Shown: positions 39,001-42,000 of the stretch, in pieces
Numbering within the stretch: the stretch's first letter is position 1
How the letters are laid out: every line of letters starts with the position of its first letter
NCBI RefSeq assembly: GCF_029227855.1
Contig: NZ_CP074356.1
Length of the DNA stretch: 64,000 nt
Source: Escherichia coli
GTDB taxonomy: Bacteria; Pseudomonadota; Gammaproteobacteria; Enterobacterales; Enterobacteriaceae
Strand: one strand, 5' to 3'
Position numbers: made by a program

Positions 39001-42000
39001 AATCGATTCTCATACACTGGGTCTGGATGGTTTCAGCGTTAAAAATAATGATGCAGTGAAAACCAGTGCTGCCGTGAATACTCTTGGGGGGGGGGCAGGT
39101 TCTGTTGCTGTCGACTTCGCAACAACCAGTTTGACTGCTATCACTGGTCTCGGTAGCGGTGCTATCAGCGAAATTGCTAAAGACGATAATGGTGATTACT
39201 ACGCGCATGTCACAGGGACTACGGGTAATACTGCTGATGGTTACTATGCTGTCGATATCGACAAGGCTAACGGTGAGGTCGCTCTGAAAGATGGTAACGT
39301 AGATACACCGACAGGTACGCCAACGACGACAAGCACATATGACTTCACAGACGCTGGTCAAACCGTTTCCTTTGGCACTGATGCTGCAACAGCCGGTATC
39401 AGCACTGGTGCTTCTCTCGTTAAACTTCAGGATGAGAAAGGCAATGATACTGCTACTTATGCAATCAAAGCACAAGATGGCAGCCTGTATGCCGCCAACG
39501 TTGATGAGGCTACCGGTAAAGTCACTGTCAAAACCGCCAGCTATACTGATGCTGACGGCAAAGCAGTGACCGATGCCGCTGTAAAACTGGGTGGTGACAA
39601 TGGCACAACCGAAATTGTTGTCGATGCTGCGTCAGGTAAAACTTACGATGCTGGTGCACTGCAAAACGTTGATCTCTCCAGTGCAACCAACACGGTAACC
39701 GCAATCCCGAACGGTAAAACCACGTCTCCGCTGGCTGCCCTTGACGACGCAATCAGCCAGATCGACAAATTCCGCTCCTCCCTCGGTGCGGTGCAGAACC
39801 GTCTGGATTCCGCGGTCACCAACCTGAACAACACCACTACCAACCTGTCTGAAGCGCAGTCCCGTATTCAGGACGCTGACTATGCGACCGAAGTATCCAA
39901 CATGTCGAAAGCGCAGATCATCCAGCAGGCAGGTAACTCCGTGCTGTCCAAAGCTAACCAGGTACCGCAGCAGGTTCTGTCTCTGCTGCAGGGTTAATCG
40001 TCGTAACCTGATTAACTGAGACTGACGGCAACGCCAAATTGCCTGATGCGCTGCGCTTATCAGGCCTACAAGGTGAACTGCAATTTATTGAATTTGCACA
40101 TTTTTGTAGGCCGGATAAGGCGTTTACGCCGCATCCGGCAACTTGAATGGTAATTTGTCAGCAACGTGCTTCCCCGCCACCGGCGGGGTTTTTTCTGTCC
40201 GCAATTTACCGGTAACCCCCAAATAACCCCTCATTTCACCCACTAATCGTCCGATTAAAAACCCTGCAGAAACGGATAATCATGCCGATAACTCATATAA
40301 CGCAGGGCTGTTTATCGTGAATTCACTCTATACCGCTGAAGGTGTAATGGATAAACACTCGCTGTGGCAGCGTTATGTCCCGCTGGTGCGTCACGAAGCA
40401 TTGCGCCTGCAGGTTCGACTGCCCGCGAGCGTGGAACTTGACGATCTGCTACAGGCGGGCGGCATTGGGTTACTTAATGCCGTCGAACGCTATGACGCCC
40501 TACAAGGAACGGCATTTACAACTTACGCAGTGCAGCGTATCCGTGGCGCTATGCTGGATGAACTTCGCAGCCGTGACTGGGTGCCGCGCAGCGTGCGACG
40601 CAACGCGCGTGAAGTGGCACAGGCAATAGGGCAACTGGAGCAGGAACTTGGCCGTAACGCCACGGAAACTGAGGTAGCGGAACGTTTAGGGATCGATATT
40701 GCCGATTATCGCCAAATGTTGCTCGACACCAATAACAGCCAGCTCTTCTCCTACGATGAGTGGCGCGAAGAGCACGGCGATAGCATTGAACTGGTTACTG
40801 ATGATCATCAGCGAGAAAACCCGCTACAACAGCTGCTGGACAGTAATCTGCGCCAGCGGGTGATGGAAGCTATCGAAACGTTGCCGGAGCGCGAAAAACT
40901 GGTATTAACCCTCTATTACCAGGAAGAGCTGAATCTCAAAGAGATTGGCGCGGTGCTGGAGGTCGGGGAATCGCGGGTCAGTCAGTTACACAGCCAGGCC
41001 ATTAAACGGTTACGCACTAAACTGGGTAAGTTATAACGTCAGTAAATGCCGCACTTTAATTTTGACTACCAGGAGTTCTTAATGATGGTGCAGCACCTGA
41101 AAAGACGGCCATTAAGCCGCTATCTTAAAGACTTTAAACACAGCCAGACTCATTGCGCGCATTGCCGTAAATTACTCGACCGCATTACCCTCGTTCACGA
41201 CGGCAAAATAGTGAATAAAATCGAGATTTCCCGCCTGGACATGCTGCTTGATGAAAATGGCTGGCAAGTGGAACAAAAATCATGGGCGGCATTGTGCCGA
41301 TTTTGCGGTGATTTACATTGCAAAACGCAGAGTGATTTTTTCGATATTATCGGCTTTAAGCAATTTCTTTTTGAGCAAACTGAAATGAGCCCAGGTACGG
41401 TGCGTGAATATGTCGTTCGTCTGCGCCGTTTGGGTAATCATCTACACGAGCAAAATATTTCCCTCGATCAGCTGCAGGACGGTTTCCTTGATGAAATCCT
41501 CGCCCCGTGGCTGCCCACTACCAGCACCAACAATTACCGCATTGCGTTACGGAAGTATCAACACTATCAGCGTCAAACGTGTACCGGACTTGTGCAGAAA
41601 TCCTCCAGCCTGCCTGCTTCTGATATATATTAAATAAGAATAAGATGTAGCGGAGTTGTTTTTGTGTTTACAAACAATGGCTCTACACTGCAAACAGACA
41701 TAACAACATTCGGGGTGAATATGAAATTAGCACATCTGGGACGTCAGGTATTGATGGGTGTGATGGCCGTGGCGCTGGTTGCGGGCATGAGCGTTAAAAG
41801 TTTTGCAGATGAAGGTCTGCTTAATAAAGTCAAAGAGCGCGGCACGCTGCTGGTAGGGCTGGAAGGAACTTATCCGCCGTTCAGTTTTCAGGGGGATGAC
41901 GGCAAATTAACCGGTTTTGAAGTGGAATTTGCCCAACAGCTGGCAAAACATCTTGGCGTTGAGGCGTCACTAAAACCGACCAAATGGGACGGTATGCTGG

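Follow-up and report, generated by a model that had tools for sequence, protein, structure and literature searches.

The 3′ untranslated region (3′UTR) of fliC, the flagellin gene, occupies positions 39998-40194 of a 64-kb stretch of Escherichia coli DNA (contig NZ_CP074356.1; hereafter the window), and its closest described counterpart is the fliC 3′UTR of E. coli K-12. In K-12 this region is processed to FliX, a ~200-nt Hfq-bound small RNA (sRNA) (Melamed et al. 2023, eLife 12:RP87151; PMC10578931), and to a ~100-nt form, FliX-S, which "includes one of the REP sequences downstream of fliC", REP denoting repetitive extragenic palindromic units. Both forms are σ28 dependent, are processed and co-immunoprecipitate with Hfq in K-12, and FliX-S is the more potent of the two (PMC10578931). 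Overexpression of FliX or FliX-S results in fewer flagella and in less fliC mRNA and flagellin, and both RNAs repress fliC as well as fusions to rplC, rpsS and rpsQ of the S10 operon (PMC10578931). With the seed mutation M1, FliX no longer binds rpsS, a compensatory change in rpsS restores binding, and a chromosomal fliX-M1 mutant has more numerous flagella (PMC10578931).

FliX shares with CpxQ, SroC and FlgO (from the flgL 3′UTR) cleavage from a parent mRNA, use of the parent terminator as Hfq-binding module and a short single-stranded seed. In contrast to these sRNAs, FliX has an unusual length and a repeat element within it, and the targets best documented for it are bound within coding sequences, not at ribosome-binding sites (PMC10578931). 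The REP stabilisers and terminators at malE-malF and in yjdM-yjdN (REP325/naRNA4) likewise have REP hairpins after a stop codon. In the fliC 3′UTR, however, the REP units do not form the 3′ end of the fliC transcript because a separate intrinsic terminator follows them, and the naRNA4 model stays below its gathering threshold. The repeat itself resembles bacterial interspersed mosaic elements of the BIME-1 type (RIP/RIB), as described by Gilson, Bachellier and Hofnung, by Boccard and Prentki (1993) and by Oppenheim (1993), in having inverted Y and Z units, an L linker of ~35 nt and a site similar to those bound by integration host factor (IHF). It differs from BIME-1 elements generally in that it is part of a transcript from which processing yields an RNA with a documented function in trans, and in that the functional FliX seed is unique sequence adjoining the repeat and not part of it.

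The fliC 3′UTR as the fliX locus

We are highly confident that 39998-40194 is the E. coli fliX locus and that it would act as FliX and FliX-S do in K-12. The FliX/FliX-S locus has already been published, and the copy in the window is an ordinary, intact allelic variant with nothing new. What speaks for this directly in the window is the anatomy of the 3′UTR and its homology to K-12, a seed, terminator and probe sites that are all intact, folds predicted to be equivalent, and the computed pairing to rpsS. The σ28 dependence, processing, Hfq binding and regulation come from the K-12 literature and presumably hold in the window strain as well, in which homology to K-12 likewise suggests that FliX is expressed.

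An earlier note on this DNA, made from the sequence alone, had described about 200 nt after the fliC stop codon with two inverted REP units followed by the terminator, and pattern, terminator and repeat scans showed both the description and its coordinates to be accurate. Counted from the stop codon through the last T of the terminator (40194), the interval measures 197 nt, with a 40-nt unique leader, the Y REP, the linker, the Z REP, ~30 nt of unique sequence and the terminator following one another in that order (Table 1). The Y REP pattern has one match in the whole window, with 0.00 expected by chance, and for the Z REP pattern at 40106-40140 chance predicts ~0 matches over the same length; a further Z-type REP-like sequence, GTAGGCCGGATAGGGCG, with one mismatch to the pattern, lies far away at 955-971. 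The assignment of the units to Y and Z types presumes the signatures GCCTGATG and GCCGGAT, which we take to be diagnostic. Inverted repeats I1 and I2 are 94% and 88% complementary, respectively. As judged from sequence, the element is a BIME-1, with inverted Y and Z units and an L linker containing a match to the IHF consensus; a Y unit, an L linker with an IHF site and an inverted Z unit are the constituents of the classical BIME-1 (RIP/RIB) element. The terminator with its U tail is the expected Hfq-binding 3′ module.

Table 1. Coordinates of fliX, its parts and the flanking features in the window.
Feature	Position	Strand	Basis
Predicted σ28-type fliC promoter, TAAAGGTT-N11-GACGATAA	38413-38439	+	Two mismatches to TAAAGTTT-N11-GCCGATAA
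fliC (flagellin, 493 aa), parent mRNA of FliX	38516-39997	+	NCBIfam FliC/FljB family flagellin, 650.8 bits
Full-length FliX sRNA, 194 nt	40001-40194	+	Primer SM044 TTGTAACCTGATTAACTGAGACTG; window reads TCGTAACCTG at 40001; K-12 homology
REP (palindromic unit), Y type, GCCTGATGCGCTGCGCTTATCAGGCCTAC	40041-40069	+	Pattern scan; inverted repeats I1, I2
BIME-1 L linker, 36 nt	40070-40105		Rfam ES036; IHF-like site
IHF-like site ATTCAATAAATTG	40081-40093	-	One mismatch to consensus WATCAANNNNTTR
FliX-S, ~105 nt: Z-REP hairpin, single-stranded seed, terminator	40090-40194	+	Primer SM673 GAATTTGCACATTTTTGTAGGCCGG matches at 40090
REP, Z type, inverted relative to Y unit, GTAGGCCGGATAAGGCGTTTACGCCGCATCCGGCA; the unit kept in FliX-S	40106-40140	+	Pattern scan; inverted repeats I1, I2, I4
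FliX seed UCAGCAACGUG	40158-40168	+	Primer SM644 and FliX-S-M1 gBlock; same as K-12
Intrinsic terminator of fliC/FliX: 7-bp all-GC stem 40172-40188, 3-nt loop, TTTTTT 40189-40194	40172-40194	+	Terminator scan
Region upstream of fliA, with its GTG start (40317); bounds FliX, lies outside it	40215-40319	+	Invariant in 11/11 aligned strains

The FliX features were placed on the window by means of the primers, gBlocks and Northern probes tabulated in PMC10578931. Besides the primer matches listed in Table 1, Northern probe SM675 matches at 35 of 35 positions (40093-40127) and probe SM043 at 27 of 28 (40151-40178), and the M1 triplet (GCA to CGU, within UGUCAGCAACGUG) maps to 40161-40163. The gBlock used for FliX-S in vitro begins 3 nt further upstream than the primer, at 40087, with ATTGAATTTGC. 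The locus lies on the fliC (+) strand, downstream of the fliC stop codon and ahead of the fliA promoter, and as in K-12 it consists of a 5′ tail, the Y REP, the L linker, the Z REP, the seed and the terminator.

The earlier note had proposed comparing the UTR with that of K-12, and had suggested that it might give rise to a stable processed fragment. The comparison revealed the same architecture, with 186 of 195 positions identical between window and K-12 FliX; the differences are a 1-nt indel in the U tract, which is one residue shorter in the window, and eight substitutions at 40002, 40073, 40078, 40143, 40145, 40148, 40149 and 40151. Five of these eight lie close together at 40143-40151, in the stretch that links the Z REP to the seed. 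No difference falls within a REP stem, the seed or the stem of the terminator, the Y and Z units having the same sequence as in K-12 and 40156-40168 being identical. With this homology and with seed, terminator and probe sites intact, the suggestion of a stable processed fragment is supported at the level of sequence, and the sRNAs that the note had mentioned as derived from the fliC 3′UTR exist as the published FliX and FliX-S of K-12 (PMC10578931).

Folding predictions agree with this comparison. The 194-nt FliX RNA of the window has a predicted energy of −70.4 kcal/mol, compared to −69.7 for K-12, and a z score of −4.0 relative to dinucleotide shuffles, none of 200 of which folded as well; for FliX-S the corresponding energies are −44.9 and −44.3 kcal/mol, with z = −4.3 for the window RNA. 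In the AU-rich centre of the linker, 40084-40093 (UUUAUUGAAU) is predicted to form the 10-nt apical loop of the BIME hairpin, its nucleotides being unpaired with a mean probability of 0.71. The window and K-12 alleles are near-identical in the predicted accessibility of each seed nucleotide.

Predicted seed accessibility and pairing to rpsS

Pairing was computed against the K-12 fragments printed in PMC10578931, the S10 operon being outside the window. The window seed forms a predicted duplex with the rpsS fragment at GGCCACGCUGCUGAUAAA with −19.8 kcal/mol, compared to −21.3 for the K-12 seed. With the rpsS-M1 fragment the compensated site is lost, and the best duplex forms at another place with −13.2 kcal/mol. 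The predicted pairing to the published rpsS target is thus kept in the window allele.

The two forms of the RNA differ in how far the seed is exposed in the predicted folds. In long FliX the seed's 5′ half, UGUCAG, pairs with 40022-40028, giving unpaired probabilities of ~0.0-0.07, whereas in FliX-S this half is mostly more open, with UGUC unpaired at ~0.6-1.0, A at 0.16 and G at 0.04. A more open seed would agree with the greater potency of FliX-S, a link that we infer from the modelled structures.

Proposed mechanism

We propose that transcription from the σ28-dependent fliC promoter would run through fliC to the terminator, and that endonucleolytic processing just past the stop codon (~40001) would release FliX of ~194 nt. 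In the full-length RNA the two REP units would pair into one long BIME hairpin, and a second cut in its AU-rich, single-stranded apical loop (~40087-40090) would yield FliX-S of ~105 nt. RNase E may make these cuts; the mapped 5′ end of FliX-S lies within the AU-rich loop, where cleavage by RNase E might be expected. After the second cut FliX-S would begin with the Z-REP hairpin and the fliC fragment would end in the Y REP, which would probably shield fliC mRNA from 3′ exonucleases; by analogy to other REP units, a stabilising effect on the upstream fliC mRNA is plausible. The U tail of the terminator would bind Hfq, and the seed would pair inside the coding sequences of the S10-operon mRNAs (rplC, rpsS and rpsQ) and of fliC, lowering their expression, so that FliX could serve as a late brake on flagellar synthesis.

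Distribution of fliX across E. coli

A survey of 5426 complete E. coli genomes with a 381-nt query showed that the element is widespread and far from universal. The full architecture, scored as coverage of at least 80% of the query, was present in 3502 genomes (~65%), K-12 and O157:H7 included, and 814 records were at least 99% identical over the query, which makes the window UTR a common type. The wording of the earlier note hints at something particular to this allele, but the architecture is thus shared by most of these genomes. A 32-nt segment comprising the seed and the terminator was single-copy in 3508 of the 5426 genomes, being identical in 1645, with one mismatch in 1535 and with two or three in 328.

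Approximately 1615 of the 5426 genomes (~30%) match from the terminator onward only. In these short-UTR genomes a spacer of 16-18 nt, with neither BIME nor FliX seed, separates the fliC stop codon from the same terminator, which is thus found in long-UTR and short-UTR alleles alike; 863 genomes have the ARL09/232 version of the short UTR. Strain variation runs ~20 nt past the terminator and ends abruptly at 40215 (GTAACCCCC), after which 11 of 11 strains are identical up to the fliA start. This position is likely the boundary of fliC-linked recombination tracts, and fliX looks as though it moves between strains along with the hypervariable fliC gene. The conservation section of PMC10578931 does not discuss absence of FliX within the species.

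These data raise the possibility, which we regard as tentative and on balance doubtful, that FliX is not a core regulator of E. coli but an accessory sRNA linked to the fliC allele with which it travels, that lineages differ in flagellin feedback, and that the cis site may be diverged in the window. Within this proposal the presence/absence split is computed from the genomes; the functional consequence and the loss of a cis target are speculation. Linkage to the hypervariable, horizontally exchanged fliC would explain why FliX is missing from ~30% of sequenced E. coli. If FliX is accessory, lineages would differ in the feedback of flagellin on ribosomal-protein and flagellar mRNAs, and if the cis pairing site has diverged in this rare H allele, FliX would act in trans only. 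Strains naturally with and without fliX are available for testing the contribution of FliX, and this population pattern is the single aspect of the locus with some broader value.

Exact occurrences of the 20-mer TTGTCAGCAACGTGCTTCCC were also sought in genome contigs; only one contig matched and the E. coli species representative itself did not, an exact match of this length being too strict for a reliable statement on other species. The one matching contig, JAIJJM010000281.1 (3920 bp) of a metagenome-assembled genome labelled Collinsella sp., carries an E. coli-like fliD-fliC-fliX fragment, 96.5% identical to 39728-40297, and is probably a mis-binned or contaminating contig.

Alternative explanations

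Several observations weigh against the assignment of a FliX function to this locus. The K-12 fliX-M1 phenotype is mild, with an altered number of flagella but no motility defect (PMC10578931), and the element is missing altogether from ~30% of E. coli genomes and is therefore dispensable. The second nucleotide of the mapped FliX (40002) is C in the window and U in K-12 and is polymorphic among strains, so the exact 5′ end of long FliX may differ. In addition, the best K-12 FliX-fliC duplex, ~400-420 nt into the coding sequence, has a computed energy of −18.3 kcal/mol, compared to only −11.0 in the window allele, where the pairing site corresponds to 38916-38935. Three substitutions in the fliC allele cause this weakening, such that the internal site with the best computed pairing in K-12 is altered in the parent fliC, a rare H type. 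In duplex prediction the K-12 and window optima for a fliC-internal FliX target lie at different places, and either may differ from the site in Figure 4D of PMC10578931.

Absence of the element from ~30% of genomes could also be taken to indicate that the BIME is a passive 3′UTR repeat, which blocks 3′-to-5′ exonucleases or partly terminates transcription and stabilises fliC mRNA, with no sRNA function at this locus. REP units are summarised as 3′UTR stabilisers and partial terminators in bioRxiv 10.64898/2026.03.23.713779, and E. coli genomes have a median of 28 places with REP-like matches to the query. However, the seed is not part of the repeat, occurs only once in the genome and is the same as the K-12 seed, which was validated by compensatory mutation with rpsS (PMC10578931). 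Since the stabiliser and sRNA roles are compatible, the passive repeat competes with FliX only in the form that it does nothing else, and in that form we consider it very unlikely. It is unlikely, too, that the BIME-1 acts mainly as DNA, binding IHF and possibly gyrase as a supercoiling buffer or architectural insulator between fliC and the fliA promoter. The predicted IHF-like site in the L linker, one mismatch from the consensus, and the position between fliC, a very highly transcribed late gene, and the promoter of fliA, which encodes a regulator, would suit such a role, and BIME-1/RIP elements reportedly bind IHF in vitro (Boccard and Prentki 1993; Oppenheim et al. 1993). In contrast, the model element REP325 had no measurable role in chromosome compaction in a recent study, and short-UTR strains without the BIME keep an identical fliA promoter region; a DNA-level role would moreover add to the documented RNA function, not replace it.

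A match of the Rfam model ES036 (RF02751) raised the question of whether the 3′UTR encodes an independent minus-strand sRNA, ES036/CssrF, antisense to it. The match, at 40062-40103 on the minus strand, exceeds the gathering threshold (42.1 bits versus 37.6; E = 4e-5 over the whole window) and lies on the strand opposite to fliC, inside its 3′UTR. However, the 43-nt model corresponds to the BIME L linker, and the strand of the match says little because this linker is near-palindromic. The founding CssrF is a transcript of ~290 nt from the dacB/yhbZ intergenic region of Shigella flexneri, so that we read the match in the window as a shared repeat motif rather than that gene, and no σ70-like promoter or terminator was found on the minus strand within the fliC 3′UTR. 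We therefore rejected an ES036/CssrF antisense gene, which we consider extremely improbable, as a match to the repeat linker whose founding context (dacB/yhbZ) differs.

Two further candidates were rejected. Membership in naRNA4 (Rfam RF02564, derived from REP325) reached at best 41.7 bits, compared to a gathering threshold of 59.5, and only a single REP hairpin aligns. The direct repeat of family D2, TGACGGCAACG (40023-40033) and TGTCAGCAACG (40156-40166), was considered as a target-site duplication that created the seed; by our estimate chance alone would give ~9 such matches of 9 in 11 positions over all pairs of positions in 381 nt, which counts against a duplication, and BIMEs are not known to generate duplications. 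The assignment to fliX accordingly bears on annotation: the correct entry is fliX (FliX/FliX-S sRNA) with an embedded BIME-1, not an anonymous structured UTR, and it has little importance beyond that.

The fliC gene and other features of the window

Genes in the window include fliD (−), fliC (+), fliA (+), fliZ and tcyJ. The NCBIfam flagellin profile begins at residue 8 of the fliC open reading frame, the ATG at 38516, and the gene ends with a TAA stop codon (39995-39997). The predicted σ28 promoter precedes the parent transcript of FliX, and homology to the 5′ end of the fliC (-70) fragment of PMC10578931 places the transcription start near 38447. The fliC 5′UTR of the window allele diverges noticeably from the K-12 sequence printed in PMC10578931. 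Divergent from the fliC promoter, a σ28 consensus promoter of fliD with one mismatch lies at 38339-38313 on the minus strand.

The identical 493-aa flagellin is present in public E. coli records, in an 11-member cluster at 90% identity. The central variable region of fliC (39050-39550) was found in only 2 of the 5426 complete genomes, JNEC-KY178 (100%) and RMDEC465 (97%), and the window fliC is a rare H-antigen allele. The name of the H type was not obtained from NCBIfam, which gives only "FliC/FljB family flagellin", or from the cluster names, which are generic. Downstream of fliX, the fliA upstream region contains GCCGATAA at 40284-40291, and fliA is annotated as such in the matching genomes.

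Elsewhere in the window, Rfam matches at gathering level comprise DsrA at 16828-16914 (+; 102.5 bits), RseX at 8403-8492 (−; 96.7 bits) and three tRNA genes at 49988-50287 (+).

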